64,000 nt of DNA from an uncultured virus (IMG/VR IMGVR_UViG_3300027973_000050) (lineage: Duplodnaviria; Heunggongvirae; Uroviricota; Caudoviricetes): IMG/VR virus record IMGVR_UViG_3300027973_000050; one strand, given 5' to 3'. How positions within the stretch are numbered: position 1 is the first letter of the stretch; each line of letters opens with the position of its first letter. Of the stretch, positions 9,571 through 32,860 are shown in pieces. A program made the position numbers and the translations under genes. Below the pieces are notes generated by a model. It did no database searches. It saw nothing but the letters and a program-made list of their open reading frames with translations, and had not been told where the DNA came from.

Positions 9571-9895
9571 CGCCACTGGTCAATGCAGCATAACCAGCAG
9601 TAGGAGTATTAAATCTTAGTACCGTTGTACTGCCACTTACAAATTCTATTTCTGGAAAATTAGCAGTACCAGTTAGGCTCTTATTATCAGTGCCAATTAC
9701 TTCGACAATAGGATATCGAGTACCTAAATTATGTACAATTTCCCAAGTTAATTGTGGTGTTGGCTGTTGAAAAATATAGAAACCACCAATGGCCGTATCG
9801 CCACTGATACCTTGAATACCCTGCGCTCCCTCCTTACCAATTAGTAAGGGATCCCACGTTTGAGTATTAGTATTATATTGTTTTAGGACGCTCAT
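1..9895 (-). CDS. Giant collagen-like fibre protein, (Gly-Val/Leu/Ile-Gln)n interrupted by 18 CBM5/12-like aromatic modules; 3' end outside the window (>3298 aa)
   Basis: ATG at 9895-9893 gives [29 protein letters not shown]...[17 protein letters not shown]...[10 protein letters not shown]. The same frame still reads G-V-Q at positions 2-19. Inserts read e.g. [29 protein letters not shown]...HWQMIVSQG. Absent from the ORF track because there is no stop in the window. Confidence 0.9.
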
Positions 9896-14872: not shown

Positions 14873-17800
14873 TTACTCATTCAATGCTAGGATGTATGGT
14901 GTAATAACACCTAGCAAGCTCTTGTTAAATGCTCTACCAACAATCGAACCTGAGTCACGTTTAATTGTTAGTTCTGGACCAATCTTGAAGTCACCCTTCT
15001 GATCTGTACTAGTGAAGTTGATGAATCCACCGCGTTCACTAACAATCTCATTAGCCTCAATCGGTACTCCACCATTATATGGTAACGCACTATCAACGTC
15101 AATACCAGTTCCTACCCACTCTAGTGTGTGACCAGTTGTTGTAATCTGGCTAACTTGGTGGAAAGTTGCATATGTATTATCATCAACACTTGACTTAAAT
15201 GTAGCATCTAGTGTCACTACACTGACATAACCGTTTGAAACGATATCAGTAAATGCATCGAACAATGATCCAACTGTGGTTACTTCACTATCTGTAGCAG
15301 CCACATTGTCTGTGTTCTGATCTACATAGATCTGCAACGGAGTTACATAATCATTCTTAACAATCTTTCTTGCCAATGTGTCTAGATAATTGAATCCAGC
15401 CGCAGTAGCATCTTTGCTGTCTGCTGGGATCTGCAATCTACCACCACTGAAATACTGCTCTGCTGCATACTTGGTTCTACTATTTCCACCGTAGATCAAG
15501 TCATAAGCCACAGCATCCAATGTTAAGCCAATGTCACGCTTACATGTATCTTGTAAGTATCCAAATCCTGAATACTCTTCATTAACATAAGTGATTGTGT
15601 CAGCTTGAATTGCTTCAAGATTATCTTGAATTAAATCGCGTAACAATACATACTTGGCTTCAGCATTGTCCAAACTTGGGGCAACTAGGGCAGGAGCACC
15701 AGCAAGACCTTTTTGTAATGTTGTTACAATACCATGAACCAATGTTGCAGTTCTTGTTGCATTATCGTTAGTAGCTGCTGTATGAGTCTTGTCTTGAGTC
15801 TGACTGTTACCACTTAACGGTGCAACAGTAGTATTCTTAACAATGTCATCAATGATACTTTCTAGATACTGCATACTTAGGATTGTTGGTCCTTTTGTTC
15901 CAAACGGAATGACTAGACCACCTTTGTATGTGTACTGGATGCCAGCATCTCTAGTTTGAGTATTGCCACCGTAATACATGTCATAAGCCAATGCTTCAAC
16001 AATATAACCAATATCGCGTCCGCACTTTTCTGGATTGTACACGAACCATTGTCCATCAAATGCATCTTTGACTGCCTTGTTTACACTGCCACTTGTAGTA
16101 TTATTTGCAACAAGAGTAGCTCTAACTGCTTCTATTGCTGTATAATCAGCATCACCAGTATTGATAGTTGGTAAAACTCTTAAACTATTAGCAGTTGTAT
16201 TAGCAGCACCTAAATTAGCTGAATCAATAATATTAGTTATACCATCAATTAGGTCAGTAACACCATCTTGAACTGTGCTACTACTTGCTCCACCAAATGT
16301 TCCTTTTGTAACAGAAATTTGTTTTGGAGTAAATGCATTAAATGTTGTCTCACTTAAGATTAAAGCTCTAATCATATCCCTTAGATAAGCATATGCACCT
16401 AGTGTAGCAGTTGCTTCACTTTGACCAGGTTCACCTAGTCCTAATGTTAATGTAGTGCCTTCCCAATATGCAAGACCAGCTTCTACAGTTTGACTGTTAC
16501 CGCCATAGATCAAGTCATAACGTAATGCTTCAAGGATATATGCAACATCACGCTCACATGCAATCTTGTCATAATCCAATTCTGGATAATTGATTGCAAT
16601 CCAAGCACGAACTTCTGCTTTGATGAAAGCTGTATTATTAGCATTAGCAATAGTTTCAACAGCATTATCGTATGCAGCAGTACCATTTGTATCAAATGTT
16701 AATGCTGGAACAGCTATTACACCACGATCTATGATGTCAATGATAGTATCCATCAATGAACGTACAGTAGTTGCCCCAGTTAATGACAAGTCAGTTAATG
16801 CTTTCTTCAAGAAGTACAATGCACCAATAGTAGCTGCTTTTTGTTCGCCTGTTACTGTCTTACTATAACTTCTTAAATATGCCTGACCAGCTTTAACTGA
16901 CTGGAAGTTAGATCCAAGTAATAAGTCATATTCAATTGCGTCTAGAATAATACCAACATCACGAGCACACTTAGTTGTGTCATAAACACCTCTTACAAAC
17001 TCTCTGCTATTGATATAATCAAGTACTTTATTTACACTAGCTTCTTTAGCTGCAAGTAATGTAGCTTTAGCAGAAGTAATAGTTGGGTTAGTACTTGTTA
17101 CTGTTGGCTCAATAATTGTTGTTAATGCTGGAGTTGTTCCATCACCACCAACATAATTGATAATAATATCAATTAAAGCATTAGCCGCGGTAGTTTGTCC
17201 TGTAACATAACTAGCAATTGTAGTCTTAAGTTGAGCGTAAGCAGCTAAAGTAGCTCCTTTCTCGCCAGTACCATTGCCCAATTGCGCTTGAGTACCTGCA
17301 AAATAACTACGAGCAGCAATAACAGTTGCTCTGTTTCCGCCATATGTTAAGTCATGTGTTAGTGCGTCAACAATATAACCAACATCGCGTAAACATGTAG
17401 CTTGTCTACCAGCTAATGTTGCCCAACTAAATCCATTAGCTGTATAAGTGGACAAGTAAGTTCCAATAGCAGTTTTAATAGTTTCTTTATTAGTCTGCAA
17501 TGTATTACTAGTTACTGCACCTGTAAGACCAGTTGACGGGAAACTTAATGTTGGAGCATTGCCACCGTCATTAATAATGTCAATGATAATACCTAGCTTA
17601 GATCTAATTCTGCTTACAACAGTGCTACTAGTACTAACTAGGTTAGCTAATACACTCTTAGCATGAGTTAGAGCAGCTAAGATTGCAAACTTCTGCGGAG
17701 CAGCAACTGCACCTTGAGCATCAACTCTTGTGTAAGCAAGACCAGCTGTAACGCTTTGGGCATTACTGTCAGTGAAAGTGTCATAAATTACTGCGTCTAA

Positions 17801-20800
17801 GATGTATCCTAGGTCGCGTTCGCACTTGACAACATCATATAAGAAGTAAGCTCTTTCATTGATATACTTGGTGGTCTTTTTAGATATTGTAGACACAGCA
17901 TTAACTATGTTATTTCTAGCAATTTCTAGGTCATTATCTGCACCAAGCAATTGTGGATACTGTACTGTTGGAAGAGCACTTAATCCGTTTGAAATTACAT
18001 TTTTAATAATGTCAATTAATGTACCAACTTTTGTATCGTTAGTAACGTTAGTTAATTCTTGCTCAATAGTATTTCCACTAACCTCATCTCGAATTAAAGT
18101 TTTCAAGTATTCATAAGCAGCTAGAGTAGCAGTTTTCTCAGCAGTAACAACACCTAATGTTAACTCATTACTATTTCCTACATAGTAAGCACGAGCAGCA
18201 ATAGTAGTTGCCCAGTTGCCACCATATGTTAAGTCATATGTAATTGCGTCAACAATATAACCAACGTCGCGTGTACATAAAGCTTTCTTAGGAGCACTTA
18301 ATGCATTCCAGAACACATTACTGTCATATCCGCCAGTTGGGTTGGCGAACCAATCTGTAATGTCACTTTGGATTGTACCTCTAACAAGACGAGTTAATTG
18401 TCCTTGAGCATTATATGCTGTAACATTACTTGGAGTGAAGTCCATTTCATCTATAGCAACACTTGCTGCAATATCACCATTGATAATACCAATGATTAGA
18501 TCCATGCTAGCTTTAACACTATCAACAGCATCGATATTGTTGGCCACAATTGAAGCTAACAATTGCTTGACATACTTCAAGCTTTGAATTGTCATATGCT
18601 GCTCTTTACTGCCATCCAATACATTTTCAGCCGTATTACCTAAGTAGCGTAATCCAGCTATAGTACTTTGATAGTTACTACCTGTTACCATGTCATATGC
18701 GACAGCAGTTACAATGTAACCAACATCACGAGCACACTTTTCTTCATTATATCCAACAGTGTCATCCTGTTCTTTGAATGGATTGTACTCAGTGTTGATC
18801 TTAGCAAGTACTTGGTCAACAATGAAGTCCTTGTTGGCTAATAAAGTCTTTTTAACTTCGTCAGCATTATCTGATACTGGTGTACCACCCCAAGTAATAG
18901 CTGGTATGCTACCATCTGGACCCTTATCTAGGATCTGTAGGATAACATTCATGCCAGCTGCAATTCTTTCTTGAGCAATCTTATTAGTTGTTAGGGCTAA
19001 TAATTCATTCTTTAACAAGTTAAATGCTGCTGTTGTAGCTAATTTTTGGGTAGTACCAAACACGCCATTACTTGCAATTAAACGAGCATAACTGCGTCCA
19101 GCAATTGTTGTACGGAAATTGCTGTCAAACAACATGTCCCAACTAATCGCGTCAGTTACATAACCAACATCGCGAGCACACTTGACTGCGTCGTATGTCA
19201 ATGCTGGGAAGTTAGTGGTTACATATGAAGTAACAGCAGTCTTAATTACTGCAATTTGATCTCTAAATGTAGCACTTACTTCTTTTAGATTTACATCTGC
19301 CCATGAAGCATCTGCGTAAACTTCTGTAACACTTGCATCATCATCAATCAAACTGTTGACGTTAGCAATCAATGCAGCAATTGTATCAGCTACACTTGCT
19401 GGGAAGTCTGAAATATCTGCAATCTTATCGCCTAATTCAGTGAATGCTGCCTTAGTAGCATTAACGTGATCAGTATGAGGAGAAGAACCAAGTACAGCTC
19501 CTTCATAATATGCACGACCAGCAACAACTGTTTCCATATTGCCACCATAGGTCAAGTCATACTTGATTGCATCTAATACATAACCAATATCGCGTAAGCA
19601 TGTATCTTTATTATAGCCAGAGAAACTATGTGAAATACCATCTAGATATGTACCCATCTGCGATAATAAAATATCTCTATTAGCATCAAGTAGGCTAATA
19701 CCACTAGCAACTACTGCGTCATAACTATTTCTAGTTACTTCACCTAGCTCCAATGTGTCTAATAGAGTACGCATTGCACTTGTTACTCTGCGACCAGCTT
19801 CCTTGTTACCAGTTACAATGGCTAACAACTTGCCTCTTAAGAATTCAAATGCTGCCATTGTGGCTGCCTTTTGCTCCTTAGTTGTGAAGTTACCACTTGT
19901 AACTTGACTACGTGAGTAGCTGCGACCAGCAACATAACTTCTAAACTCATTGTCAAACATCATGTCATAACGTACTGCGTCAACAACATAACCAACATCG
20001 CGAGCACATGTGTCTACGTTATAATCCAATGCTGGGAATGTTGCAGTAACATAATCAGTTACTTGTTGCTGTAAGCTTGCTACTGTATCACCCATTGTTG
20101 TTGCAAATGATACAAAGTTACTGTTAACCCAACTTGTGTTAGGTAGTCTTGCAGCAGCATTATCACCTGTGCTAGTATTAATATATGTTACTAACTCATC
20201 AAACAATACTTTAGCAGCAGCAGCACCAGCAGCACTACCTGCAAGTCCAGTTGTGGATTGTGCTGGAATACTTCCGCCTGTATAAGGACCAGCAGCTAAG
20301 TTTTGAGCAATGTCTTCAATAATGCTACCAACAAAATTAAATGTATCAATAGTGTTAGTAATATGAGTTGAATCAGCTTCAGCTAATACTAGTCCATTGT
20401 AGTATGCACGTCCAGCTTCTACAGTTGCTAAGTTGCCACCGTATGTTAAGTCATAACGTACTGCATCTAAGAAGTAGTCAACATCGCGTAAGCATGTTGC
20501 TAAACTAAATCCTGTTGGATTAATACCTTCGTCGTCAATATACTCAGCAACTTGACCTTTGATGTAATCTCTGTTAGCTTCAATACGATCTCTAGCAGCT
20601 AGACGACCAATATCAAAACTGTTTACAGTGCCACCATATGGAATTGATAGTGCTAATGCGCCGCTTCCAGCAAATGTTCTAACACGACCAGCTCCATTGT
20701 CTAGGATGTCAATGACTACGTCCATACTTGCACCAACTCTTGCTAGAGCTGTTGCGTCAGATTTGACAATATCTTCTAGTGCAATCTTAACAATTCTAAA

Positions 20801-23800
20801 GCCTGCAACTGATGCATCCTTCTGACCTAAACTTGTAAAGTCACCTTCAGTAACTTGTCTACGTAAGTAGCTGCGACCAGCAACGTTACTTCTAAAGTTA
20901 CTGTTAAACATCATGTCCCAACGTACCGCGTCAATGACTAAACCAATGTCTCTTTGACATGTTGCAACGTCATAATCTAATGCTGGATAGTTAGCACTGA
21001 TATAATCAGTTGTTGTCTTAGCCACAGTTGCTTTAGCAGCATTTAGCGCATCACTGAACACATATAACTTACTTGGGACCCACTTAATGTCAGCTGGAAT
21101 TTCAACTGGATCTTGCGGAGCTGTGTCAATGTAGTTCATTACTAGTGTAACTAACGGAGCGACAAAATTAGTACTTACTGGTTCAGTAGAAGCTGGAGCA
21201 GTTTTATCTTGTGTAGTACTATTTCCACTGGATCTAGTTACATCAATATTTTGAACTACTAGCTTGATAACGTCTCTTAAATGTCTGTAAGCATCTAATG
21301 TAGCAAGTTTTTCATTCTTACCTTCTAGAACTGTACCATTGTAATAAGCACGACCAGCAACTGATGTTTCCATATTGCCGCCATAGGTCAAGTCATAAAC
21401 AATTGCATCTAAGATAAATCCTAAATCTTCTCTACACTTAGTTTCGTCTGTTGCACCAACACCAGTAGTAAATGTAAATTCTGGGTAAGCATTAGTGTTG
21501 AAGTTGCCTCTGTTAGCTGTCTTCTCTTGAATAATGTAAGCAATTACTTCATTAATTAAGAAAGTTCTGTTAGCAACAATTCTAGCTTTGGCATTGGCAA
21601 TAGCTGCAACGTGTGAATTATCTGTGCCACCTGTTGGGGTTGGCAATGCACTTATCGCAGGAGGATCATCACCGCTAACGATATCTATAATAGTATCCAT
21701 TAGACTTGTTAATCTAGCTTTGGCAGCTACTTCAATTGTACCAGCAGCACGAACATCAATTATATCAAATAATTTTGTTTTTAATGTGTTTAATGCAACT
21801 AATTCAGCAGTATTTTGATCACCACCATCATAAACTTCTGATGCTACAAGACGCGTATAACTACGACCAGCTACAACACTACGGAAATTAGTATTAAATA
21901 ACATGTCATAACGTACTGCATCAATGACTAACCCAATATCGCGAGCACACTTGGCTGAGTCAAACACTAAACTTGGATCACCAACACTTACTGCATCAAC
22001 GATGTCAGTAATAATTGTGTCCTTGTCTGTTAGGAACTCACCATCTAATGTTAGGTAATCTGAATCTACCCAATCAATATATGGTGTAGTTGTTACTGGA
22101 CTACTGTTGTAAGCAGCATCAACTAAGTTTCTTACACCTAAAACCAATGCCTCAGCTTCTCTTGCAATGTCGGCTGGGATGCTAGCAGCTACTAGAAGAT
22201 CAAGAACCTTTCTAGCCATGAAAGTGTAAGCTTCTAATGTGGATTTAATTTCGTTGCCAATTAGTAAACTTTCGTTAGCTGCACCTGCATAGTATGCACG
22301 ACCAGCAACCATTGTTTCCATGTTGCCACCGTAGGTCAAGTCATAGCACATTGCTTCTAAGATGTAACCAATGTCTTTTTCACATGAAGCCTTTCTATTA
22401 GTTCCAGCAGTAGTTGGGGTGGTATTTGTATTGTTTGAACTATCCCATGTACCATAATCAAATCCATCAAACGCTGGATTCTTACGACCAGCAAGTTCAG
22501 CAACAATAAATGCACTTACTGCATTCTTAATAGCAGTTACGTTAGTGCTGTTCTTGAGATAATCAACTGCGTCAAAATATCCAATAGTACGGAAATCTCT
22601 TCCAGTTGCTCTTGGTAGTGCGTAAACACTGCCACCAGCTAGTGCAGTAACAAAAGTTGGCACTGTGCTTTCAGCAATAATACTCTTGATCAATTCAAAA
22701 CTATCAGTAATGCTAGCGATTGCTGTTGCATCAGTTGTTAGTTCTAACACACGACTTAGTGCATAATCAATACCACCTAATGTTTCTCTTAGTTGATCGC
22801 TGATTACCAAGCTGCTGGTTGCTCTGCGATAAGCTGTACCTGCTTTGATACTGTTGTAGTTTGTACCTAATAGTAGGTCATTCAATGCAGCATCAATGAT
22901 TAGGCCAACGTCGCGAGCACAACGGCTTTGATCATAAGTCTTGTAGTTAGCTGTGATATAAGCAGTAACTTCTTCTTTCAAGAACTCCTTGTTAGCAATC
23001 AAACTCTTAGCAGCGTTGATACTGTTTGGATTGAGAGCAGCACCTAGTGGTGGAACATTTACCACTGCTGGGGCTACTTCAACACCCTTGTCAACGATGT
23101 CATATAGAATGTCAAATCTATTTTCGATTTCACTGATAATATATGGATTTGTTACTAGTGGAGGTGTTTGACTTACTGCAACGCACTTTTCTTTAATAAA
23201 GTTAATTGCTTCTAACTGTGGCCCTAACTGGTAACTTGTAACTACACCAGCTGCTTTCTGTAAGTATACACTGCCTGCTGTGATAGTTTGGAAGTTGCTG
23301 TTTAGAACTAGGTCATACATGACACAGTCAATGATTAAGCCAACGTCGCGAGCACACTTTTCTGTGTTATATTGTAAAATATAGCTGTCAAGATAATCAG
23401 CAATACGAGCCTGTAAACTCTTCTTCTGTTCTTGCAAGCTTAATCTTACATAAGCCAATGTTTCATCACCAGCTAAGAACTCTGGCTCAATTGGCTCTGG
23501 AAGCTGTTTCACACCGCCTTTAACAACATTAATAACAATGTCAGTTAGTCCAGCTAGTTTAGCAGCAACTTGTTCGCTAGCACCAATACCACGAACTTGT
23601 GGCACTGCTAGTTGGAATGACTCAACTGGTGTATTACGGGATACTTCAAATAAAACTGTACCTAAGTAATTGTAAGCTCTTTCTGTAGCTGTTACTTCAT
23701 CTGCACCAAGTACAGCACCTTCATAATAAGCTGTGCCTGCATTAACAGTTTCAGTGTTACCACCATATGTTAGATCGTAGTAAATGGCATCTAGGATGCT

Positions 23801-26800
23801 ATCTAAATCTTCCAAACACTGAGTGCGATTGTACGCAAACACTGTAAATCCGCTAGTATCACGTCTGTTTTGCTCATCAATCCAAGCAATTACTTCTGCT
23901 TTAATAAACTCACGGTTATTCTCAATAGCAGTTCTAGCAGCCAATGTATTTCTATCATAAGCATTTAGAGGTGTGTTTAGAGAATTAGCACCTGTTGGAG
24001 TTGGAATTGAATATGGCTTAGCTGGAACATCTTTAACTAAAATATATGTTAATCCAGTTGGTGTGCCAGCAGTGGTTGTAATTGCACTGCCGCCCTTTGT
24101 AGCTGACAATGTAAAGTTAGTAGGGCCACTAGTAGAAATAACGTAGTATGTATTTCCAGTAGCATACCCAGTAATGGAGCCACCGCCACCATATGTACCT
24201 GTAATAACAACTTTTGCTCCTACTTCCACATATGCCTCTGATGCACAAGAGAATTGGCCACCAGTGCCAGTAATAGCAACTGTTCTTAAAGGAACACCAA
24301 CATTAGTAATGAACAAGTCCATTAAGGTATTAATTCTAGCTAAAGTTGTTGTGTCACCACCATTACCACTACCAGCAGTGCCATTAGTATTAATAGCAGT
24401 CTTGCTTGTTGATTTTGCTCTATTATTAAGTGTTATTAACTCAGCCTTTAGTTGCTTGAAAGCTGCTATTGTAGCTTGTCTCTGAACACCAGTCACAGCA
24501 TTTGTCACATTGCGACTGTAAGCTTGAGCAGCAATAATTGTCTTAAAGTTTGTATCAAAAGCAATGTCAAAACGTAGTGCATCCAACAATAAAGCAGTGT
24601 CGCGAGCACACTTATCTGTGTCAAAATAGCTAACTCTTAATGTACCTGCTCCTGGAGTGATTGTTGCGGCAGTTAGCTCTGCATTTGTTGTACGATCACT
24701 TCTCTCACTTACTGTGAAAGTATTGGATGTTGGGATTGTTTTTACATAATATGTAGTACCAAACTTAATGCTGCCAACATCTGCACCTGCTGTAAATTGA
24801 ATTGCTTGTCCAACAGTGAATGTATGATCATTTGTTACAGTAATTGTAGCAACACCGCCGCCACCTACAGCAATTCCAGTTACTGTGTTACCATTGTTAG
24901 TGATAGCATATTCTGTAACAATCTGTGGGAAACTCTTAGGTCTTCTAACTGTGTCAACTACTGAAGCAACTAAATTAGGTGTTTTATATTTGCCCAATAA
25001 TTCTGCAAAATCAGACAAGTTAGTACCTGCCCATGCTGTATCTGGATACACAGTGCTTGGATTAGCAGCAATAGTACTGATATAATCTCTAACTGTCCAT
25101 GCTAGATTTCTACTAGCTTGAGCAGCACTTACACCAGCTTGTGGACCAAATACTTGTGGAACCTTAACTTGAAGCTTACTTACATCCTCATTCTTAGCAA
25201 TCTTTGCTACTAGAGACTGTAAGTATGTATAAGCAGTTACGGTAATTGCTAACTGTCCACTTGGGAGTGAATCGTTATCAAGTCCGGCACCAGCATAATA
25301 TGCTAACGCAGCAACACTAGTTTCCATTGTGCCACCGTAAGTCATATCATAACGTAGTGCGTCAATGATATAATCAACGTCGCGTAAACATACTGCATTA
25401 TTATAATCTAAAGATGGGGACTCAACAGTGATTTTCTTGGTCAATTCTGCTTTGATAAACGCTCTGTTAGCATCAATTAAGTTTCTTGCATATCCATAAC
25501 TTGGTAGATAATCTGTATTATAGCCAGTTGGGCTTGGTAGTTTAACTTCTGGAAGTTGATCTAATCCACCTTTTAGTACTGCCAATACAATATCCATACA
25601 CTCAGCTACACGAGATCTAGCTGTTTCACTAGTTGTTGTGTATGTTAATAGTGTAGTTCTTAGTAACTCAAATGAGCCAATTGTAGCATCTTTTTGTAGT
25701 CCTACTACTAGAGCAGCCTGTGCGCGATAATAGCTACGAGCAGCAACAATTGTTCTAAAGTTACTACCAAACATCATATCATAACGTACTGCGTCAACAA
25801 CTAAACCAATGTCGCGTTCGCATGAAATAACATTATAATCAAATATTGTTAGACCACTAACGCTAGCGTTTGTTGTTAAGTTAACAGCAGAACCACCTTT
25901 CTCAGTACTTACTTGGAAGCCATTAGTTGTAAGATAAGTTCCACCTAATACATAATAAACAGTATCAGCAGTTAGGCCTGTACCTGTTGTAGTACCTTTA
26001 AGTACTATAATTTGATCTTCAACTAAACCATGTCTATTAGCAGTAATTATATCATTAGTTGTGTTGGTTGCGGTTACCTGTGTTTGAGCACTGTAATTTG
26101 CAGCAATATAATCTGTAACAGCAGTCTTAATATCAGTTTTTTCAGCTTCAATAGCATCACTGATAGTTACTAACTCACTGTCAAGAACATTAACCCAATC
26201 TGTGCTAGCTGCAACTGGAGTTGGATTTGTTCCACCTAGTGCTGTTAAAATAACACCAATTAGATCATTAGCTTTAGTGCCAGCTGCACTTGAACCTTTA
26301 CTGCTTGATGTTGTGCTTTGTTTAACTGTATTATTAGCGATGATTTCTAAAATCTTAGCTTTGGTAAAATCAATTGCTGCTAGTGTGGCTTCTTTTTGGT
26401 TATTAGTTGTAAAGCCACCTTCTGTAACTTGAGTTCTAGCATAACTACGACCAGCTACAGTACTTCTAAAGTTTGTACCAAACATTAAGTCATAACGTAC
26501 AGCATCAATAATTAGGCCAATATCTCTTCGGCATGTATTTACTACGTAATTGCCTACTAAGTCTGGATAATTAGCATTAATAAAATCTGTAACTTGTTTT
26601 TGGATACCAACCCCTAAACTTACACCGTTAAGTGTATTAGAAGAATTTGCATTATTAACAGCATCTAGAATATCACTGATTTCTACAAGACCGCTATCAA
26701 CCCATGCTGTTCCAGCTGGAACTTCAGTATCATCATTATCACCATCATCAAGATTGACAAAAGTAATAATAGTATCAATTAAATCACCAGCAGCATTAGC

Positions 26801-29800
26801 AGCACCTGAACTTCCTGCTTGAGCATTAGTACCTGAACTAAAGACTTGAGCAACATTATTACCAGTTGTTGCTGTAACCTCATTATTTTGAGCAACATCA
26901 ACAATGGCTGCTTTTAGTCGAGTATAAGCAGCAATAGTTGCAGCAATTTCGTCATCTCTATTTCCAGTTGGATCATCACTAAACACAAGACCATCATAGT
27001 ATGCACGTCCAGCAACAATAGTTTCCATATTGCCACCGTAAGTCATGTCATAATATACAGCATCTAGGATATAATCAACATCACGTTTACATGTTTCCTG
27101 ATTGTAAACTGGCGGACTATTAGCTTCAATGTAAGCGATAACTTCAGCTTTTAAGAATTCTCTGTTAGCTGCAATTAAGTTTCTTGCATTTAGATATGCA
27201 TCAACACTGGCATTGCCAGCACCACTTGTTGGAAGTGGTAAAGCAAATGGACGCTTTGGAGCAACTGCTTCTCCATTATCTAAAATACTCTTAATTAAGT
27301 CCATGTTAGCAGTTGCTCTTTCTGTAGCTAAGAACTTCTTGCTACTTGGAGTAACTGCTTTTAATCGAACTACATCTTGTAGTACTTCGCTTAGTCTTTC
27401 ATAAGCAGCTACAGTTTGAATAACCTGCTTAGGAATAACTGACTTAGGAGTAATTGCACCATCAAAATAACTTTGTGCTGCTGATAATGTATCAAGGTTA
27501 CCGCCATATAATACGTCATAGCACATTGCGTCAATTAAGAAACCAACGTCACGAGCGCATTTGGCTCTGTTATAGGCATAACGACTGTCAACAAAATCAG
27601 TTATTGCATCACCAAGATCAGTTTTGTTATTAGTTAAACTTAGATTCAATGTAACTAATGCGTTAGCAACCCAATTTGTTGTAGGAAGAACTGTTGCGTC
27701 AGGTCCTGAATCAGGATTAATATCGCCTGCAATAATATCAGAAATACGATTAGCCAACAATGCTACTCTAGCGCTAACAGTAGCATCAGCAATTAAAGTA
27801 TCTAACTCTGTAGCCAATTGTCCATAAGCAGCAATAGTAATATCCAAGTCATTTGATACTAGTACTGAAGCCCCTGTAACACCACTCTTATAAGCCTTAG
27901 CAGCGATATCAACTTGAGTTGTTCCGCCGTATGTTAAATCATAACAAATTGCATCAATGATGAATCTTAAATCTCTTTGGCAATTAGCTCTTTGAGCAGG
28001 GCCATATGTGAAACCAGGATAGCCACTGCCCTGCTGTTGAATAACCCAAGAATTAATTGTTTTAACAAGAGTTTCTTTACTAGTTTGAATTGTGTCTCTT
28101 GCTGCTAAGAATGTAGAAATACCAGCTGTTCCAGTTGTACCAGTTGTTGGAGGAGTCCATTTAACTGTTGGAGCAGCAGTTAGGCCGTTTTCTAAAATAG
28201 CTAAAATAGCATCCATACTAGCAGTTACTCTAGTTGTGGCTGTTTCGTTGGTCTTGACTAAATCTAATAACTTGGTCTTTAAGAATTCAAATGAAGCCAT
28301 TGTGGCAACTTTCTGATCTTTTGTTACTACACTAGCTTGAGCACGATAATAACTACGACCTGCAACAATACTGTTGAAGTTAGTATCAAACATCATGTCA
28401 TAACGTACTGCGTCAACTACAAGACCTACGTCACGAGCACATACATCTCTGTCATATCCAAAAATTACATAGTTTGTATCAATGTAATCAGTGATTTCTT
28501 TCTTCAATGATACTGTGGCTGTTTGTAATTTCTTAAACTCAGCTACTAATTTTGCATCAACCCATGCTAGATCTGGAGTAGATGTTAAGTTTTCAATATC
28601 AAGTGCGCCGTTATCAGCACTAGAATTATCAATATAGCTAAGAATTAATTGGATTAAATCAGACATATCGCTGGATGCTGCGGCACTGCCGTCACTGCCA
28701 GTTGGACTTCTAAACTGAACTGTACTATTACCAGTTGTTCTAGTTACTGGTGTATCAACTGCCACATCCGAAATAACTGATTTCAAATGTGTATAAGCAG
28801 CAATAGTAGCAGCAACTTCATCATCATTTTGTCCAGTTGGATCTAGCTGTTTAATTGCACCAACAAAATAGCTGAATGCTGCTGTTTGAGTTTCCAATGT
28901 ACCACCATAAGTAGTATCATAATATACAGCATCTAAAATTAAGTTTAGATCACGTTCACACTTGGCTTGATCGTAACCAACTGGTACATCATTTTGATCA
29001 ATGTAAGCCAAGATTTCACTGATAATAAATCCTCTATTCTTTTCAACTAGATCTCTAGCTCTCTTATAGCCAACATCACGACCTGTTTCTGGGAAAGGAA
29101 TAATGAATTTTGGCACATTCATTCCATCGCTTTCTACGATGTCAATGATGATATCCATATTTCTATTTGTGCTGTTAACTGCTAAACTGTTTTGTTTTAG
29201 TAATTCAGCAACTAGTTTCTTAAGTTGTTTGAATCCACCAACAGTTGCTAATTTTTGACCACTTGCAACTTTAGCAGCATTGACTCTCATGTAACTACGA
29301 CCAGCAGTGATACTACGGAAGTTACTGCCAAACATTAAGTCATATCCTAATGCTTCAATAATAATACCAACGTCACGAGCACACTTTTCTCTATCATATG
29401 ACAATACAGTAAAGTTACTATCAATATAATCAACAACTTCTTCTTTGATAAAAGCAATATTATCTCTTAGAATTTTAACAGCAGTGTCTCTGTCAATATC
29501 ATCATCACTGTTTCTTTTTGGAATTGGATATTCCAATGAAGGAGCTGCAGGATTGTCAACGGTGCCATCTTTAAGAATATCAATTAAAATATCAAATCTT
29601 GTACTAATTGCTTTCTTAGCTGCTGGAGTAACAACACGCTCTAATGTTAATACTTTAGCAGCTTCTAATGCAGCAATAGTTTGAACCTTCTGTGGTCCAA
29701 TTACGTCACTAGCGTAAGCACGGAAATAACTGATAGCAGCATTAATTGTCTTATAGTTGCTATCAAAGATCATGTCACTTAGAATAGCATCTAAAATTAA

Positions 29801-32800
29801 GCCAACGTCTCTGTAGCACTTTGGCTTATTAAAGCTGAAGTTATCAAAGAAGTTATTAGCCATGAACTTGATAGTTTCTGTTGTAATATCTTCTTTAGCA
29901 GCTAGGATTGCATCTCTTACAGCCTTAACAGCAGTTGGCTGATAAGTTGTTATTGGATACCCAGTTGTTGTTGTTCCTAGTGATAATGGAGTAGCTGTAC
30001 TTACACGAGCAAATGTGTTATCACCATCACTGATTTCATACCAGTTGATGTTAATATAAGCTTGTAATTCAGCTTGAATAAATTGCTTGTTAGCAACTAG
30101 CAAGTCAAATGCCTTTTGTTTATTAGGATCTGTACTTGCTGTTAGTCCAATAGCTTGTTTAGTTCTTTGAATGGAATCCTCACTGTTGTTAGGACCTTCA
30201 CGTAGAATTTCAACAATCACATCAATTAAATTATTAATTGCATATGACTCGGCAATTGTAGCAGGTGGTAGACTGGTTCTCTGCTCAACATCACCTTGCC
30301 ATGGATTTGGTCTTGGTGTACAAGTAATAACATCAGCTAATAGCTCTTTTAAGTAGAGGTAAGCATTGATTGTTTGATTAATCTGTCTTGGACTTACTGT
30401 CTTTAGCACGTTGGATTCATCGTTAAATCCATAGTAGTAAATACCTGCTTGAACAGCTTGACGATTACCACCGTGTACTAAGTCAAAACATACACTATCA
30501 ACAATGTAACCAATGTCACGAGCACACTTTACTCTGTCATAGTTAAATGCAGGATATGATCTTGTTAGATAAGCAATGACTTCAGCTTTTAAGAAGTTCT
30601 TGTTAGCTTGTAATAGTTTGTAGCCATTATCTAAATCTGTGTCAGTTGATCTAGCACCATTTGACTGAATAAAATCACTAGTTCCAACGATTTCTGAATC
30701 AATCTGTTTTAGGAATATCTTGAATAAATTACCTAAGTTATTAACTTGAGTTTGAGTTGTTGCAGTACCGTTAAGATTTTGACTACCTGAATATCCTTCA
30801 ATAGGATCATTAATTACAACACGTTGACTGTACAACTGGGCAATACCATATGCATCTGTTGTAGCAACACGCTCATAATTAGCAATTTGTCTTGAACCAT
30901 TAGCATAGCTATAATATCTCTTAGCTGCATCTATTGTTTCACTATTACCGCCGTAGGTCAAGTCAAAGCACATTGCATCAAGAACATATCCTACATCTCT
31001 TTTACATATATTTTCATCATAATTTCCAATTAAATCTGGATAATTTTCATTAACTTTAGCAATAACAATTTGTTTAACAAGTGTCTTATTAGCTTGTAAG
31101 TTTATAACTAAATTCTTAACAGTTACATCTGTATCTTGATAATCAGGATATTGTGGGGCTGTTGTTACTGCGCCAGCGTCAATTGAGCTAGTAATTAACT
31201 CAAAATTTCCTGTGACACTGTCTACTGCATCAGTATTTTCAGTTATTAAAGCAATTACTTTATCACGAGCAAATTTAACAGCTTCAATTGTTTCTGTTTT
31301 TGTACCTGAAGGAATTACTAATCCACTGGCGCTTATATATGATCTAGCAGCCTTGATACTTAAATAATTACCGCCAAAAATCATATCGTTAATTACAGCA
31401 TCAATGATAATGCCAACATCTCTAAAACACTTGGATTCAGAATACTGAAGAGTTGGATAAGTTGATCTAATAAAAGCAATAGTTTGATCTTGAATTTCTT
31501 GCTTTTTGCTTAATACTTGTTCTCTTAAACGTTTAAGTTCTGGTTCAGCCAAGTCATAATCTGGAAGAATAATTGTTTTTGGACTTAATGGCCCGTTCTC
31601 TACGATTCCACTGACAATGGCAAACCCGTCACGTACTAATCTTTGTGCTGTTACAGAACCGCCATCAGTTGCACCAGCAGCAACTTTGCCTACTTGATTT
31701 TCAGTATTACCTGATGTTTTAGTAACTGCTACGTCACGAGTAATTAAACCAGCAACATATTTGGCATGATCTAATGCTGCGACTGTTTCTGGACCTTGAT
31801 CACCAATTGTGATTTCGCCTTTGGCCCAATAACGTAGGCCAGCAAATGTACTTTGTGTAGTACCTTCGTATAATAAATCTTGAGCTAAACTATCAACAAT
31901 TAGACCATTGTCTCTATTACATGTAACTTGATTATAGTTGGCAAATAATACGCCGTCACCAATGTTTGGACGCTTGGCTAAATTCTTAAATACAATTTGA
32001 CGTCCTGCTGACTTCTTAACAACACCACGATATAAAATTTCACTAGCACCACGACTTACTAGACCGTAGTTACCAAATGAGCTGTTACTTAGGTTGATCG
32101 AGCAAAATCCACCGTTTTCACATAAGAATGAAATATCGCAGCAAATTGTAAAGATGGAAACTAACTGTGTGTTTCCTCTGTTCAACATGTGAATACCAAT
32201 ACCACCTTGGTTGTACTGTGTAAACGCATCAGCAACCATTGAACGTAGGCCAGTAGTTACAGCACCGTCAACACGCATACCTGTACCAGTTGTTGTGATA
32301 CTGGTTACCGCTTGAGTATAAGGGGAAGTTACAATTTCACCAGCACTACCGTCTGGTGGGAAACAGACCGCAGCTGAAGGAGCAATGTGTCCTTTGAAAT
32401 TCATACAGAAAATATACGCACCGTTGTAAACCCAGAAAATATCTTGTGTTGGGTTTTTTGGACGAACTGTGGTGTTACGCAAGTTGTCGCCAACAACTGA
32501 TACACGAGCAGGAACTCTTAGTGGGTTATCTTCAATATACTCCCCACTCTTTAAAAATATGGTCGTGCCAGGTGTCGCAACACTCAGAGCCTTTTTTAGG
32601 CTTGCAAAACTCTCCCCCAATGTTTTACCGCTATTGCTGTCATCGCCGCTTTTACTAACATAAAGTACGTTAGGTACTGATGTTGCGCCGATTTCAACAA
32701 TCTTTTGTATAGCTGAAAACCCTGCAGGTTGTTTAATTTCTTGTTTAGTAAATAGTTTACCGTCAGCACTGTTAATTGCTAACTCACCTAATTCTAATGC

Positions 32801-32860
32801 CTCTAGTGATGGTACTTTTCCTGGTATATCACTGCGTTTAAATCTAATATTAGTGCTCAT
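14873..32860 (-). CDS. Giant virion protein (5995 aa): N-terminal fibre-attachment motif, pectin-lyase-like beta-helix, ~34 phycobiliprotein-like CxRD helical repeats
   Basis: Single uninterrupted ORF. Starts MSTNIRFKRS..GELAINSADGKLF, then VLYVSKSGDDSNSG..TIFLKSGEYIE (beta-helix start), then repeated Y(D/N)xxKCxRDxGxxxDAxxYDxx(YGGN/FxSNF). Confidence 0.9.
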   Translation of the reverse strand: MSTNIRFKRSDIPGKVPSLEALELGELAINSADGKLFTKQEIKQPAGFSAIQKIVEIGATSVPNVLYVSKSGDDSNSGKTLGESFASLKKALSVATPGTTIFLKSGEYIEDNPLRVPARVSVVGDNLRNTTVRPKNPTQDIFWVYNGAYIFCMNFKGHIAPSAAVCFPPDGSAGEIVTSPYTQAVTSITTTGTGMRVDGAVTTGLRSMVADAFTQYNQGGIGIHMLNRGNTQLVSIFTICCDISFLCENGGFCSINLSNSSFGNYGLVSRGASEILYRGVVKKSAGRQIVFKNLAKRPNIGDGVLFANYNQVTCNRDNGLIVDSLAQDLLYEGTTQSTFAGLRYWAKGEITIGDQGPETVAALDHAKYVAGLITRDVAVTKTSGNTENQVGKVAAGATDGGSVTAQRLVRDGFAIVSGIVENGPLSPKTIILPDYDLAEPELKRLREQVLSKKQEIQDQTIAFIRSTYPTLQYSESKCFRDVGIIIDAVINDMIFGGNYLSIKAARSYISASGLVIPSGTKTETIEAVKFARDKVIALITENTDAVDSVTGNFELITSSIDAGAVTTAPQYPDYQDTDVTVKNLVINLQANKTLVKQIVIAKVNENYPDLIGNYDENICKRDVGYVLDAMCFDLTYGGNSETIDAAKRYYSYANGSRQIANYERVATTDAYGIAQLYSQRVVINDPIEGYSGSQNLNGTATTQTQVNNLGNLFKIFLKQIDSEIVGTSDFIQSNGARSTDTDLDNGYKLLQANKNFLKAEVIAYLTRSYPAFNYDRVKCARDIGYIVDSVCFDLVHGGNRQAVQAGIYYYGFNDESNVLKTVSPRQINQTINAYLYLKELLADVITCTPRPNPWQGDVEQRTSLPPATIAESYAINNLIDVIVEILREGPNNSEDSIQRTKQAIGLTASTDPNKQKAFDLLVANKQFIQAELQAYININWYEISDGDNTFARVSTATPLSLGTTTTGYPITTYQPTAVKAVRDAILAAKEDITTETIKFMANNFFDNFSFNKPKCYRDVGLILDAILSDMIFDSNYKTINAAISYFRAYASDVIGPQKVQTIAALEAAKVLTLERVVTPAAKKAISTRFDILIDILKDGTVDNPAAPSLEYPIPKRNSDDDIDRDTAVKILRDNIAFIKEEVVDYIDSNFTVLSYDREKCARDVGIIIEALGYDLMFGSNFRSITAGRSYMRVNAAKVASGQKLATVGGFKQLKKLVAELLKQNSLAVNSTNRNMDIIIDIVESDGMNVPKFIIPFPETGRDVGYKRARDLVEKNRGFIISEILAYIDQNDVPVGYDQAKCERDLNLILDAVYYDTTYGGTLETQTAAFSYFVGAIKQLDPTGQNDDEVAATIAAYTHLKSVISDVAVDTPVTRTTGNSTVQFRSPTGSDGSAAASSDMSDLIQLILSYIDNSSADNGALDIENLTSTPDLAWVDAKLVAEFKKLQTATVSLKKEITDYIDTNYVIFGYDRDVCARDVGLVVDAVRYDMMFDTNFNSIVAGRSYYRAQASVVTKDQKVATMASFEFLKTKLLDLVKTNETATTRVTASMDAILAILENGLTAAPTVKWTPPTTGTTGTAGISTFLAARDTIQTSKETLVKTINSWVIQQQGSGYPGFTYGPAQRANCQRDLRFIIDAICYDLTYGGTTQVDIAAKAYKSGVTGASVLVSNDLDITIAAYGQLATELDTLIADATVSARVALLANRISDIIAGDINPDSGPDATVLPTTNWVANALVTLNLSLTNNKTDLGDAITDFVDSRYAYNRAKCARDVGFLIDAMCYDVLYGGNLDTLSAAQSYFDGAITPKSVIPKQVIQTVAAYERLSEVLQDVVRLKAVTPSSKKFLATERATANMDLIKSILDNGEAVAPKRPFALPLPTSGAGNASVDAYLNARNLIAANREFLKAEVIAYIEANSPPVYNQETCKRDVDYILDAVYYDMTYGGNMETIVAGRAYYDGLVFSDDPTGNRDDEIAATIAAYTRLKAAIVDVAQNNEVTATTGNNVAQVFSSGTNAQAGSSGAANAAGDLIDTIITFVNLDDGDNDDTEVPAGTAWVDSGLVEISDILDAVNNANSSNTLNGVSLGVGIQKQVTDFINANYPDLVGNYVVNTCRRDIGLIIDAVRYDLMFGTNFRSTVAGRSYARTQVTEGGFTTNNQKEATLAAIDFTKAKILEIIANNTVKQSTTSSSKGSSAAGTKANDLIGVILTALGGTNPTPVAASTDWVNVLDSELVTISDAIEAEKTDIKTAVTDYIAANYSAQTQVTATNTTNDIITANRHGLVEDQIIVLKGTTTGTGLTADTVYYVLGGTYLTTNGFQVSTEKGGSAVNLTTNASVSGLTIFDYNVISCERDIGLVVDAVRYDMMFGSNFRTIVAARSYYRAQAALVVGLQKDATIGSFELLRTTLLTYTTTSETARSRVAECMDIVLAVLKGGLDQLPEVKLPSPTGYNTDYLPSYGYARNLIDANRAFIKAELTKKITVESPSLDYNNAVCLRDVDYIIDALRYDMTYGGTMETSVAALAYYAGAGLDNDSLPSGQLAITVTAYTYLQSLVAKIAKNEDVSKLQVKVPQVFGPQAGVSAAQASRNLAWTVRDYISTIAANPSTVYPDTAWAGTNLSDFAELLGKYKTPNLVASVVDTVRRPKSFPQIVTEYAITNNGNTVTGIAVGGGGVATITVTNDHTFTVGQAIQFTAGADVGSIKFGTTYYVKTIPTSNTFTVSERSDRTTNAELTAATITPGAGTLRVSYFDTDKCARDTALLLDALRFDIAFDTNFKTIIAAQAYSRNVTNAVTGVQRQATIAAFKQLKAELITLNNRAKSTSKTAINTNGTAGSGNGGDTTTLARINTLMDLFITNVGVPLRTVAITGTGGQFSCASEAYVEVGAKVVITGTYGGGGSITGYATGNTYYVISTSGPTNFTLSATKGGSAITTTAGTPTGLTYILVKDVPAKPYSIPTPTGANSLNTPLNAYDRNTLAARTAIENNREFIKAEVIAWIDEQNRRDTSGFTVFAYNRTQCLEDLDSILDAIYYDLTYGGNTETVNAGTAYYEGAVLGADEVTATERAYNYLGTVLFEVSRNTPVESFQLAVPQVRGIGASEQVAAKLAGLTDIVINVVKGGVKQLPEPIEPEFLAGDETLAYVRLSLQEQKKSLQARIADYLDSYILQYNTEKCARDVGLIIDCVMYDLVLNSNFQTITAGSVYLQKAAGVVTSYQLGPQLEAINFIKEKCVAVSQTPPLVTNPYIISEIENRFDILYDIVDKGVEVAPAVVNVPPLGAALNPNSINAAKSLIANKEFLKEEVTAYITANYKTYDQSRCARDVGLIIDAALNDLLLGTNYNSIKAGTAYRRATSSLVISDQLRETLGGIDYALSRVLELTTDATAIASITDSFELIKSIIAESTVPTFVTALAGGSVYALPRATGRDFRTIGYFDAVDYLKNSTNVTAIKNAVSAFIVAELAGRKNPAFDGFDYGTWDSSNNTNTTPTTAGTNRKASCEKDIGYILEAMCYDLTYGGNMETMVAGRAYYAGAANESLLIGNEIKSTLEAYTFMARKVLDLLVAASIPADIAREAEALVLGVRNLVDAAYNSSPVTTTPYIDWVDSDYLTLDGEFLTDKDTIITDIVDAVSVGDPSLVFDSAKCARDIGLVIDAVRYDMLFNTNFRSVVAGRSYTRLVASEVYDGGDQNTAELVALNTLKTKLFDIIDVRAAGTIEVAAKARLTSLMDTIIDIVSGDDPPAISALPTPTGGTDNSHVAAIANAKARIVANRTFLINEVIAYIIQEKTANRGNFNTNAYPEFTFTTGVGATDETKCREDLGFILDAIVYDLTYGGNMETSVAGRAYYNGTVLEGKNEKLATLDAYRHLRDVIKLVVQNIDVTRSSGNSTTQDKTAPASTEPVSTNFVAPLVTLVMNYIDTAPQDPVEIPADIKWVPSKLYVFSDALNAAKATVAKTTTDYISANYPALDYDVATCQRDIGLVIDAVRWDMMFNSNFRSNVAGRSYLRRQVTEGDFTSLGQKDASVAGFRIVKIALEDIVKSDATALARVGASMDVVIDILDNGAGRVRTFAGSGALALSIPYGGTVNSFDIGRLAARDRIEANRDYIKGQVAEYIDDEGINPTGFSLATCLRDVDYFLDAVRYDLTYGGNLATVEAGRAYYNGLVLAEADSTHITNTIDTFNFVGSIIEDIAQNLAAGPYTGGSIPAQSTTGLAGSAAGAAAAKVLFDELVTYINTSTGDNAAARLPNTSWVNSNFVSFATTMGDTVASLQQQVTDYVTATFPALDYNVDTCARDVGYVVDAVRYDMMFDNEFRSYVAGRSYSRSQVTSGNFTTKEQKAATMAAFEFLRGKLLAIVTGNKEAGRRVTSAMRTLLDTLELGEVTRNSYDAVVASGISLLDANRDILLSQMGTYLDGISHSFSGYNKDTCLRDIGYVLDAIKYDLTYGGNMETVVAGRAYYEGAVLGSSPHTDHVNATKAAFTELGDKIADISDFPASVADTIAALIANVNSLIDDDASVTEVYADASWADVNLKEVSATFRDQIAVIKTAVTSYVTTNFPALTYDAVKCARDVGYVTDAISWDMLFDSNFRTTIAGRSYARLIASNGVFGTTQKLATTAAFNLLKNELLALTTNKIAQERIAAGMNVILQILDKGPDGSIPAITWGGTPVSDNADEVKKTLLANKDFIVDQVLAKINTEYNPFKEQDDTVGYNEEKCARDVGYIVTAVAYDMVTGSNYQSTIAGLRYLGNTAENVLDGSKEQHMTIQSLKYVKQLLASIVANNIDAVDSVKASMDLIIGIINGDIAASVAIDEMDFTPSNVTAYNAQGQLTRLVRGTIQSDITDWFANPTGGYDSNVFWNALSAPKKALCTRDVGYIVDAITYDLTYGGNWATTIAARAYYVGNSNELTLGVVTAEKTATLAAYEYLKTLIRDEVSGNTIEQELTNVTNDTKVGTLIDIIKNVISNGLSALPTVQYPQLLGADNDLEIARNNIVNAVSTISKKTTKYINERAYFLYDVVKCERDLGYILDAVIYDTFTDSNAQSVTAGLAYTRVDAQGAVAAPQKFAILAALTHAKSVLANLVSTSSTVVSRIRSKLGIIIDIINDGGNAPTLSFPSTGLTGAVTSNTLQTNKETIKTAIGTYLSTYTANGFSWATLAGRQATCLRDVGYIVDALTHDLTYGGNRATVIAARSYFAGTQAQLGNGTGEKGATLAAYAQLKTTIASYVTGQTTAANALIDIIINYVGGDGTTPALTTIIEPTVTSTNPTITSAKATLLAAKEASVNKVLDYINSREFVRGVYDTTKCARDVGIILDAIEYDLLLGSNFQSVKAGQAYLRSYSKTVTGEQKAATIGALYFLKKALTDLSLTGATTVRSLMDTIIDIIDRGVIAVPALTFDTNGTAAYDNAVETIANANNTAFIKAEVRAWIAINYPELDYDKIACERDVAYILEALRYDLIYGGNSQTVEAGLAYWEGTTLTLGLGEPGQSEATATLGAYAYLRDMIRALILSETTFNAFTPKQISVTKGTFGGASSSTVQDGVTDLIDGITNIIDSANLGAANTTANSLRVLPTINTGDADYTAIEAVRATLVANNTTSGSVNKAVKDAFDGQWFVYNPEKCGRDIGYIVEALAYDMYYGGNTQTRDAGIQYTYKGGLVIPFGTKGPTILSMQYLESIIDDIVKNTTVAPLSGNSQTQDKTHTAATNDNATRTATLVHGIVTTLQKGLAGAPALVAPSLDNAEAKYVLLRDLIQDNLEAIQADTITYVNEEYSGFGYLQDTCKRDIGLTLDAVAYDLIYGGNSRTKYAAEQYFSGGRLQIPADSKDATAAGFNYLDTLARKIVKNDYVTPLQIYVDQNTDNVAATDSEVTTVGSLFDAFTDIVSNGYVSVVTLDATFKSSVDDNTYATFHQVSQITTTGHTLEWVGTGIDVDSALPYNGGVPIEANEIVSERGGFINFTSTDQKGDFKIGPELTIKRDSGSIVGRAFNKSLLGVITPYILALNE

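Follow-up and report, generated by a model that had tools for sequence, protein, structure and literature searches.

A predicted giant fibre protein of an uncultured T4-like jumbo phage carries 34 tandem phycobiliprotein-like domains, candidate acceptors for phage bilins

The phycobiliproteins of light harvesting are free subunits of 160–180 amino acids (aa), with N-terminal X/Y helices, and with alpha and beta subunits that form (alpha-beta)3 discs. The stretch of DNA considered here (the window) comprises 64,000 nucleotides of an uncultured virus of the class Caudoviricetes (IMG/VR record IMGVR_UViG_3300027973_000050), in which one giant protein of 5,995 aa holds 34 phycobiliprotein-like domains in tandem. 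These domains share with the phycobiliproteins, and most closely with C-/R-phycocyanin alpha, homologous sequence, a modelled globin-like fold, and a Cys-x-Arg-Asp (CxRD) motif on the equivalent helix. They differ in being concatenated in one chain, which is probably a fibre, in having no X/Y hairpin evident in the model, and in carrying extra invariant residues, Asp(+14), Asn(+20), and Tyr(+30), numbered from the conserved Cys. Unlike phycobiliproteins, the array has no phycobilisome or photosystem context, and neither X/Y helices nor free disc-forming subunits are found in it.

A second parallel is ApcE, the core-membrane linker, a very long polypeptide of several domains that likewise includes one of phycobiliprotein type. 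Its bilin attachment needs no lyase, and lyase-free attachment is also proposed for the phage array. ApcE has one bilin domain followed by linker repeats and belongs to the phycobilisome core, whereas in the phage protein the domain itself is the repeat and the setting would be a virion fibre. By analogy, the array may work most like the embedded domain of ApcE or like the self-attaching bilin biosynthesis-associated globins (BBAGs) of heterotrophic bacteria. As described in PMC10151467, BBAGs are phycobiliprotein paralogues from outside photosynthesis, some of them with the CXRD motif that has a role in bilin attachment; they attach bilins to themselves without a lyase, in genomes that carry haem oxygenase and a PcyA-family reductase. 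Whereas each BBAG is a cellular protein of one domain, with its gene beside that of the reductase, the phage domains are arrayed in a predicted structural protein. In the one complete relative of the window phage (G002), the reductase gene lies about 225 kb away. The array and the phage reductase PcyX share a genome in G002 and in nine of 12 PcyX contigs, without being adjacent. The photocobilins or photoglobins (8j2y, 8j2w) are bilin-binding globins and the next-best fold family (Z 11.4–11.7), but they are less similar in structure, are fused to B12-binding domains, and carry CXQD rather than CXRD (PMC10151467).

Phages themselves encode bilin synthesis, which has been without an explanation since its discovery. 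The role of cyanophage pcyA and pebS is called ‘a mystery’ by Sullivan et al. 2010 (PMC3037559). In a 2024 study of phage alaS, hemO, and pcyX (PMC11480375), the purpose is ‘still enigmatic’, the authors ‘can only speculate’, and BBAG-type globins are named only as one possibility for the phage pathway. Giant proteins of T4-like cyanophages (Syn9 gp101, S-PM2p088 and p218, and two each in P-HM1 and P-HM2) contain the same CxRD domain, with fewer units per protein and in phages whose hosts make bilins. Neither the literature searched nor the cyanophage records link these giants to phycobiliproteins. More generally, no description of phycobiliprotein-like virion proteins was found in the literature searched, a body from which subscription journals were mostly absent, and the relevant words are not present in a 2021 survey of jumbo phages.

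The array lies within a single uninterrupted open reading frame (ORF) on the minus strand, and an equal 5,995-aa frame occurs in the nearest related record, a 44.5-kb fragment (G001). A regular-expression scan of the giant protein finds 34 C-x-x-D sites, 31 of them CxRD and one each of CLED, CEKD, and CRED, exactly as the first-pass annotation of the window had counted by eye. The two phycobiliprotein-like strings that it singled out were also correctly placed, with KCARDIGY at window 30506–30529 (residues 778–785) and ATCLRDVDYFL at 20468–20500 (residues 4121–4131). Its repeat size of 130–170 aa suits most of the units, though not every one: Cys-to-Cys spacings range from 136 to 264 aa, with 28 of the 33 at 136–186 aa and five, at the sites of beta-rich inserts, at 236–264 aa. 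A unit comprises about 134 aa (Cys-48 to Cys+85) with short linkers between units, boundaries that derive from the model of unit 27. The motif claims 34 of the 50 cysteines of the protein, and the local A1 hidden Markov model (HMM) finds the domain in no other frame of the window. The features are as follows, in window coordinates.

14873..32860, minus strand: giant ORF, predicted fibre-type virion protein, 5,995 aa plus stop, with the whole array inside
32255..32860, minus strand: N-terminal fibre-type domain, residues 1–202, matching phrog_17885
32480–32650, minus strand: start of a beta-helix, residues 71–127, matching DUF1565 (PF07602, 22.9 bits, cut-off 20.3)
15287..32065, minus strand: array of 34 domains, residues ~266–5858, from motifs, alignment, PF00502 and PDB profile matches, and fold
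18449..18961, minus strand: unit 27 (Cys4709), the modelled unit and the sole single unit over the Pfam cut-off
18914..19750, minus strand: units 25–26, residues 4371–4649, the A-B pair of the two-domain model
23807..23818, minus strand: variant site CLED, residue 3015, unit 16, type A, Arg replaced by Glu
22373..22384, minus strand: variant site CEKD, residue 3493, unit 19, type A, Arg replaced by Lys
21425..21436, minus strand: variant site CRED, residue 3809, unit 21, type A, Arg replaced by Glu
14876..15250, minus strand: C-terminal fibre-type domain, residues 5871–5995, matching phrog_17885 and phrog_3442

The units have diverged widely from one another. Identity to the reference unit is 19–33%, and mean column identity in the alignment of all 34 is 24%. 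Despite this, the Cys, Asp(+3), Asp(+14), Ala(+26), and Tyr(+30) are invariant, and Arg(+2) is kept in 31 of 34 units. An invariant site in a background of such low identity indicates an old, constrained array rather than one that arose by recent duplication or by chance. By sequence, the units are of two types, A (n = 18, ‘YDLTYGGN’) and B (n = 16, ‘YDMMFxxNF’), which tend to alternate: 24 of the 33 neighbouring pairs are unlike, compared with 16.9 +/- 2.9 in 20,000 shuffles (P ~0.009). Three beta-rich inserts between units, visible from the translation only, lie on the minus strand at about 25841–26098, 24626–24943, and 24026–24298 (residues ~2255–2340, 2640–2745, and 2855–2945) and account for the Cys-to-Cys gaps of 237, 260, and 264 aa. 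Each has a G..YYV...F.(V/L)S-type motif, and none belongs to a Pfam family.

The array domains are homologous to phycobiliproteins. When the giant protein is divided into six pieces of 1,000 aa, two score above the cut-off of 22.2 bits for the phycobilisome family PF00502 (34.6 and 32.5 bits) and a third reaches 20.3 bits; the G001 protein scores 22.8 and 22.3 bits. Among 30 units scanned singly, PF00502 is listed for five, of which only unit 27 (23.3 bits) exceeds the cut-off and four give 13–15 bits; the other 25 list no match. Unit 31 alone finds nothing in the PDB by phmmer (0 matches at E <= 10), so phycobiliproteins are reached only by the profile of all 34 units. That profile matches 55 PDB sequences at E <= 10, of which 46, including the top 17, are phycobiliproteins. 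The best is 1f99_A, R-phycocyanin alpha, at E 9e-4. The alignment sets ‘kakCaRDvg..’ onto ‘KAKCARDIGYYL’ of phycocyanin alpha, so that the conserved Cys-x-Arg-Asp falls on Cys84-x-Arg86-Asp87, within the KCARDIG stretch of that protein (HMMER; 1f99_A, 8iml_A, 1phn_A). Sequence, fold, and the motif at the Cys84 position, which together characterise the PF00502 superfamily, are thus all found in the array domain.

Structure prediction agrees with this relationship. An AlphaFold model of unit 27 built with the other 33 units as alignment (m279c7f569643; pLDDT 83.1, pTM 0.76) has a phycobiliprotein-type globin fold, and the non-globin fold that would have spoken against the first-pass annotation is not what came out. 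Foldseek ranks 1–49 of this model are all phycobiliproteins or phycobilisome chains, headed by the bilin domain of ApcE (4xxk_A, 4xxi_A; TM 0.56/0.63, probability 1.00). VIA-align returns 50 entries at Z 14.4–15.2, all phycobiliproteins or engineered or designed derivatives, although helical models can reach Z ~14 through common architecture, so that the fold result counts only jointly with that from sequence. The tightest match is smURFP with biliverdin (Z 15.2, root-mean-square deviation 2.2 A over 125 of 132 residues). As smURFP is an allophycocyanin derivative that lacks X/Y, and as the alignment begins at model residue 28 and the model consists of six core helices, the domain appears to have no evident X/Y hairpin, as had been proposed from the sequence.

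A search independent of Foldseek, over 48,161 representative chains, again places phycobiliproteins at ranks 1–8 (Z 12.4–14.9), followed by the photocobilins, sensor globins and RsbR (9–11.4), and haem globins (<= 8); the ApcE bilin domain scores Z 14.4 in both VIA-align searches. The globin phylogeny in PMC10151467 agrees with this order of similarity, from phycobiliproteins through photocobilins and sensor globins to haem globins. A two-domain model of units 25–26 (me71029988ab8; pLDDT 83.2) comprises 11 helices. A homotrimer prediction of the A-B pair (three copies) scored 0.00 and gave no answer either way; that A and B units might stack by turns in a fibre trimer, in the manner of alpha-beta discs, is speculation.

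The same site is kept across a large family. A database search recovered 171 giant relatives of 3,300–6,900 aa, comprising the cluster that is identical to the window protein (P0002) and 170 more; those that are named are all called ‘hypothetical’ or similar. A precomputed PF00502 match exists for 34 of the 120 giant relatives listed. A local HMM finds 2,467 domains in 121 of these giant proteins. Where the Cys column is covered (n = 2,398 domains), 99% have the Cys, 95% Arg(+2), and ~100% Asp(+3); Asp(+14) and Tyr(+30) are each kept in 100%, whereas the figure is 85% for Asn(+20) and 83% for Tyr(-5). The Cys-x-Arg-Asp site is under extreme constraint throughout the giant-protein family. From the helical periodicity of Cys(0), Asp(+3), Ile(+7), Ala(+10), and Asp(+14), these residues should line one helix face over ~20 A, which would be roughly the length of an extended bilin.

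A search of 1.84 billion proteins at E <= 1e-3 gives 1,512 family representatives at 50% identity. Array size reaches a maximum of 36–37 stretches, in a 93%-identical relative of the window protein and in one other protein, and the window protein and this relative thus hold one of the largest arrays seen. A search for stand-alone copies (proteins of 94–300 aa) found only one fragment of 154 aa, on a 1,256-bp contig, at a database size where real phycobiliproteins could not reach the threshold, so that it says nothing on them.

The best explanation of the giant protein is a fibre-type virion protein of a T4-like jumbo phage, as suggested by its ends and its neighbours. Residues 1–202 match phrog_17885, ‘tail fiber protein’, at 224 bits, and the last 125 residues match positions 879–1002 of the 1002 of the same family at 108.6 bits, as well as positions 3856–3966 of the 3967 of phrog_3442. 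The N-terminus also has weaker matches to the N-termini of long-tail-fibre distal subunits, and other fibre and baseplate-wedge PHROGs match the protein; the C-terminal domain has no Pfam family at E <= 0.001. The repeats themselves match PHROGs labelled short tail fibre, tail fibre, and virion structural protein. The gene lies in a structural (late) module, with a collagen-like tail-fibre gene on one side and, on the other, T4-like genes for structural proteins, capsid (Gp23), protease, portal, and baseplate, and at the DNA level the head genes are 67–69% identical to those of jumbo T4-like phages of Vibrio, Pseudomonas, and Erwinia. Termini of this type in such a module fit the virion appendage that the first-pass annotation had proposed.

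Other features of this region were recorded. Another giant ORF (window 2–9895, minus strand; at least 3,298 aa) runs off the window and resembles numerous PHROGs labelled ‘tail fiber’ and ‘collagen like minor tail’. Its N-terminal 400 aa contain long collagen-like G-x-x runs (GVQ, GIQ) with W/Y-rich modules of ~50 aa between them, and its GC content is 0.46 with a GC skew of -0.33, compared with ~0.37 and -0.1 in neighbouring DNA. Beside the portal gene, a 1,404-aa ORF (45209–49423, minus strand) has no PHROG or Pfam match, and a gene resembling CmcI/rhamnosyl O-methyltransferases (PF04989, 26.9 bits) stands among the head genes (42593–43195, minus strand). The related jumbo phages G007, G009, G010, and G011 each have two to four separate giant ORFs with the domain (4,416, 3,703, 2,928, and 2,305 aa in G007), which indicates that the domain is used in several virion proteins of one phage.

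No bilin genes are present among the window ORFs of at least 150 aa, in agreement with the first-pass annotation. Five related viral records were searched, of which only G002 is complete; the N-terminal domain served as the query for related loci. G002 (399,796 bp, CheckV 100%) has a capsid protein 90% identical to that of the window phage. It carries a Heme_oxygenase gene (74 bits) that overlaps a Fe_bilin_red gene (58 bits), and the encoded reductase is PcyX, with a match to 5owg_A at E 3e-66 compared with 1e-13 for PcyA. G002 also encodes ferrochelatase and a PF00155 protein, whose homologue in G009 is 5-aminolevulinate (ALA) synthase (E 1e-127). The photosystem gene psbA was not found in any of five long records searched, G002 among them.

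Relatives of the G002 PcyX number 335 in viral contigs. In the 80 loci kept, hemO always adjoins pcyX. Of 12 PcyX contigs of 70–280 kb searched, nine carry the domain, in ORFs of 2,200–4,400 aa; all eight of those of at least 128 kb do so, and the three domain-negative contigs are 16–23% complete. The PcyX-positive long contigs form one clade, with capsid proteins 84–90% identical, and their co-occurrence with the domain is consequently one evolutionary event, not nine: the association is real, but phylogenetically a single case. A further set of Mosig-like marine PcyX contigs (80 kept) are all <= 30.5 kb, which is too short for a test of co-occurrence.

Several observations concern the surroundings of hemO and pcyX. 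The pair is part of a conserved cluster, HSP20-ClpS-hemO-pcyX (G002 C1:331000–350000), which includes ClpS and HSP20 in 76 of 80 loci and does not lie with structural genes. In G002, an HSP70/DnaK gene stands upstream, and genes for ribosomal protein S21, a 3'-5' exoribonuclease, and a porin are near. The chaperone and adaptor genes beside bilin synthesis might serve the folding of giant proteins. In the same genome, a lyase role for the 513-aa ORF that follows pcyX was dismissed, as the ORF matches no Pfam family and only seven of the 71 loci with enough downstream DNA contain it. In the Pelagibacter phage Mosig (MT647606.1, 33653–46330), hemO-pcyX lies directly upstream of neck and tail-sheath genes, and four genes for 2OG-Fe(II) oxygenases and one for ferrochelatase come before it.

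Among cultured phages, the domain is confined to cyanophages. With units from the window as query against 50,697 records, all 48 matches are in cyanophage records, and with units from S-PM2 all 350 are. Annotations of the matching proteins include short tail fibre, tail protein, and virion structural protein, and that of Syn9 gp101 reads ‘virion structural protein; putative fiber’. With the window profile, S-PM2 gives nine matches, in ORFs of 3,340 and 3,792 aa, P-HM2 and P-HM1 four each, and P-SSM4 two weak ones (16 bits); in P-SSM2 this profile has no match. S-PM2p088 has five units, all CxRD. In the supplement of Sullivan 2010, its cluster (T4-GC 830) has no proteomic flag; the Syn9 coordinates were not located there, and the ‘fiber’ entries did not identify giant ORFs.

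The CpeT lyase family shows the same pattern as the domain, being present in four of the five cyanophage records and missing only in P-SSM2. In S-PM2, cpeT and the giant p218 share a strand, with cpeT 1.45 kb upstream, and the gp12 short tail fibre gene comes after p218. A 2OG-Fe(II) oxygenase gene stands between cpeT and p218 (AJ630128.1, 161500–178800). The GenBank record of S-PM2 places 16 tRNA features inside the S-PM2p218 coding sequence, all with its locus tag, which looks like a coordinate error of the annotation. Phage CpeT was reportedly studied by Gasper et al. 2017, and light-dependent adsorption by Jia et al. 2010. According to PMC6628666, S-PM2, P-HM1, and P-HM2 are light-dependent adsorbers, with no adsorption of P-HM1 and P-HM2 in the dark, whereas P-SSM2 adsorbs in the dark. 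The three light-dependent phages carry strong copies of the domain and the dark-adsorbing P-SSM2 has none. With four phages, a near-identical pair among them, this comparison is a lead rather than a test.

Taken together, the homology, the fold, and the conservation of the site tip the scales slightly towards bilin binding by the array domains. A number of observations weigh against this. Single-unit sequence signals are weak, the best Foldseek E-value is 2.6e-3 with none <= 1e-3, and the VIA-align Z-scores carry the caveat given above. Asp(+14), Asn(+20), and Tyr(+30) are not known to belong to the chromophore site of phycobiliproteins and could mark a different chemistry. CpeS and CpeT lyase families were not found in G002 by family search; there, hemO-pcyX is far from the giant gene, and the pair is seen only in relatives of the window phage, with the long contigs that bear it belonging to the single clade described. 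Mosig, which is cultured and complete (141 kb), has hemO-pcyX (48% identical) near its neck genes, and a profile search did not find the domain in it (best hit of a maximum-sensitivity hmmsearch 8 bits, E 0.036). Conversely, of 14 long giant-bearing fragments from the clades of P0098 and P0056, 13 were searched (L172 was left out), and none of these, at 24–53% complete, contains Fe_bilin_red or psbA. The link to phage bilin enzymes anticipated by the first-pass annotation gains support from the complete relative, which has both hemO and pcyX, but Mosig and the 13 fragments counter a one-to-one link. Among cyanophages, P-SSM2, in which the domain was not found, is reported to carry pebS and pcyA (PMC2984593), and S-PM2p088 has no virion-protein flag though its neighbours are flagged.

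Many of these points would equally suit an apo-globin, that is, a phycobiliprotein-derived rigid spacer of a long fibre that never holds a chromophore. The Cys, Arg, both Asp, and Tyr would then persist because they serve packing, salt bridges, or inter-domain or inter-chain contacts, such as disulfides or metal sites that might form between copies of a multimeric fibre. The two-domain model, which is confident as a rigid body (pTM 0.74), suggests that the array may be no more than a stiff rod. The additional invariant residues, which are not known as bilin ligands, the absence of the domain from Mosig, the reductase-free fragments, and the lack of a lyase in G002 all favour this explanation, as does the fact that no report of pigment in phage preparations was met in the literature searched. 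It accounts less well for a Cys kept in 99% of 2,398 domains that are otherwise ~25% identical, as Ala or Ser would serve packing, and a single conserved Cys per domain makes a disulfide within the domain impossible. The conserved triad is, moreover, the one that attaches and holds the bilin in the nearest structural relatives, and the domain occurs only in phages with access to bilins, through the host or their own genes. A chromophore-free spacer, the main rival to bilin binding, is somewhat unlikely.

A different ligand is a still less probable explanation, and must be counted as improbable. This could be haem or another cyclic tetrapyrrole, as in the sensor globins that share the fold (Z 9–11.4), in which case the ALA synthase and ferrochelatase of the relatives, which make haem, would find a use. 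It could also be a molecule of the host surface, since fibres usually bind such surfaces and the array would then be a multivalent receptor-binding device. The best matches in both sequence and fold are nevertheless to the bilin-binding branch and not to haem globins, CxRD is a bilin motif, no His able to ligate haem is among the invariant columns, and the relatives also have genes for haem oxygenase and PcyX, through which haem is broken down into bilin. Least probable is a bilin-binding protein that is not on the particle but acts in the infected cell, where it might be a sink for bilins or for the products of haem breakdown, or have an internal or scaffold function. The unflagged S-PM2p088 and the position of hemO-pcyX in a chaperone cluster, away from structural genes, would be consistent with it. 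Against it stand the tail-fibre matches of both termini, the location of the gene between a collagen-like fibre gene and head genes, the annotation of the Syn9 homologue as a virion structural protein, and S-PM2p218 directly before the gp12 short tail fibre.

If the domains do bind bilin, the shaft between the ends of a tail-fibre family of ~1,000 aa would have been replaced by 34 tandem bilin-binding globin domains of the X/Y-less phycobiliprotein type. In each, a thioether would join a linear tetrapyrrole to the Cys, which lies on the counterpart of helix E, while Arg and Asp would hold the propionates and pyrrole nitrogens as in phycobiliproteins. No S- or T-type lyase was found in the complete relative, so that attachment would probably be autocatalytic, as it is reported to be in BBAGs. 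The bilin would come from the phage's own hemO-pcyX pathway and, for the cyanophage homologues, from the host, so that the assembled fibre would be a biliprotein.

The role of the pigment is the least certain step. The first choice is light-dependent control of fibre conformation and adsorption, and the second is a purely structural cofactor that would lock each globin domain. In its full form, the first choice makes the fibre a virion-borne photoreceptor, in which bilins on the 34 domains of each chain, made by the ALA synthase, haem oxygenase, and PcyX pathway of the phage itself, would change fibre conformation in light and so gate adsorption. This is unlikely as matters stand. If true, it would explain why phages of non-photosynthetic hosts make bilins, and why adsorption of T4-like cyanophages is light-dependent yet independent of host photosynthesis. 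It would also supply a candidate molecule for the ‘light-sensitive phage tail fibers’ that are invoked without a molecule in PMC6628666.

The broader significance of the array lies in the acceptor that it offers. A phage structural protein with tens of intact predicted bilin-attachment sites is a concrete candidate acceptor for phage bilins, and makes the long-standing question of why phages synthesise them testable at the bench. With 34 sites per chain, a multimeric fibre present in several copies would need hundreds of bilins per particle, which suggests a reason to boost tetrapyrrole synthesis. Tandem self-labelling biliprotein arrays could interest makers of fluorescent probes. For the bilin-binding globins as a family, these domains would mean an extension to viruses.

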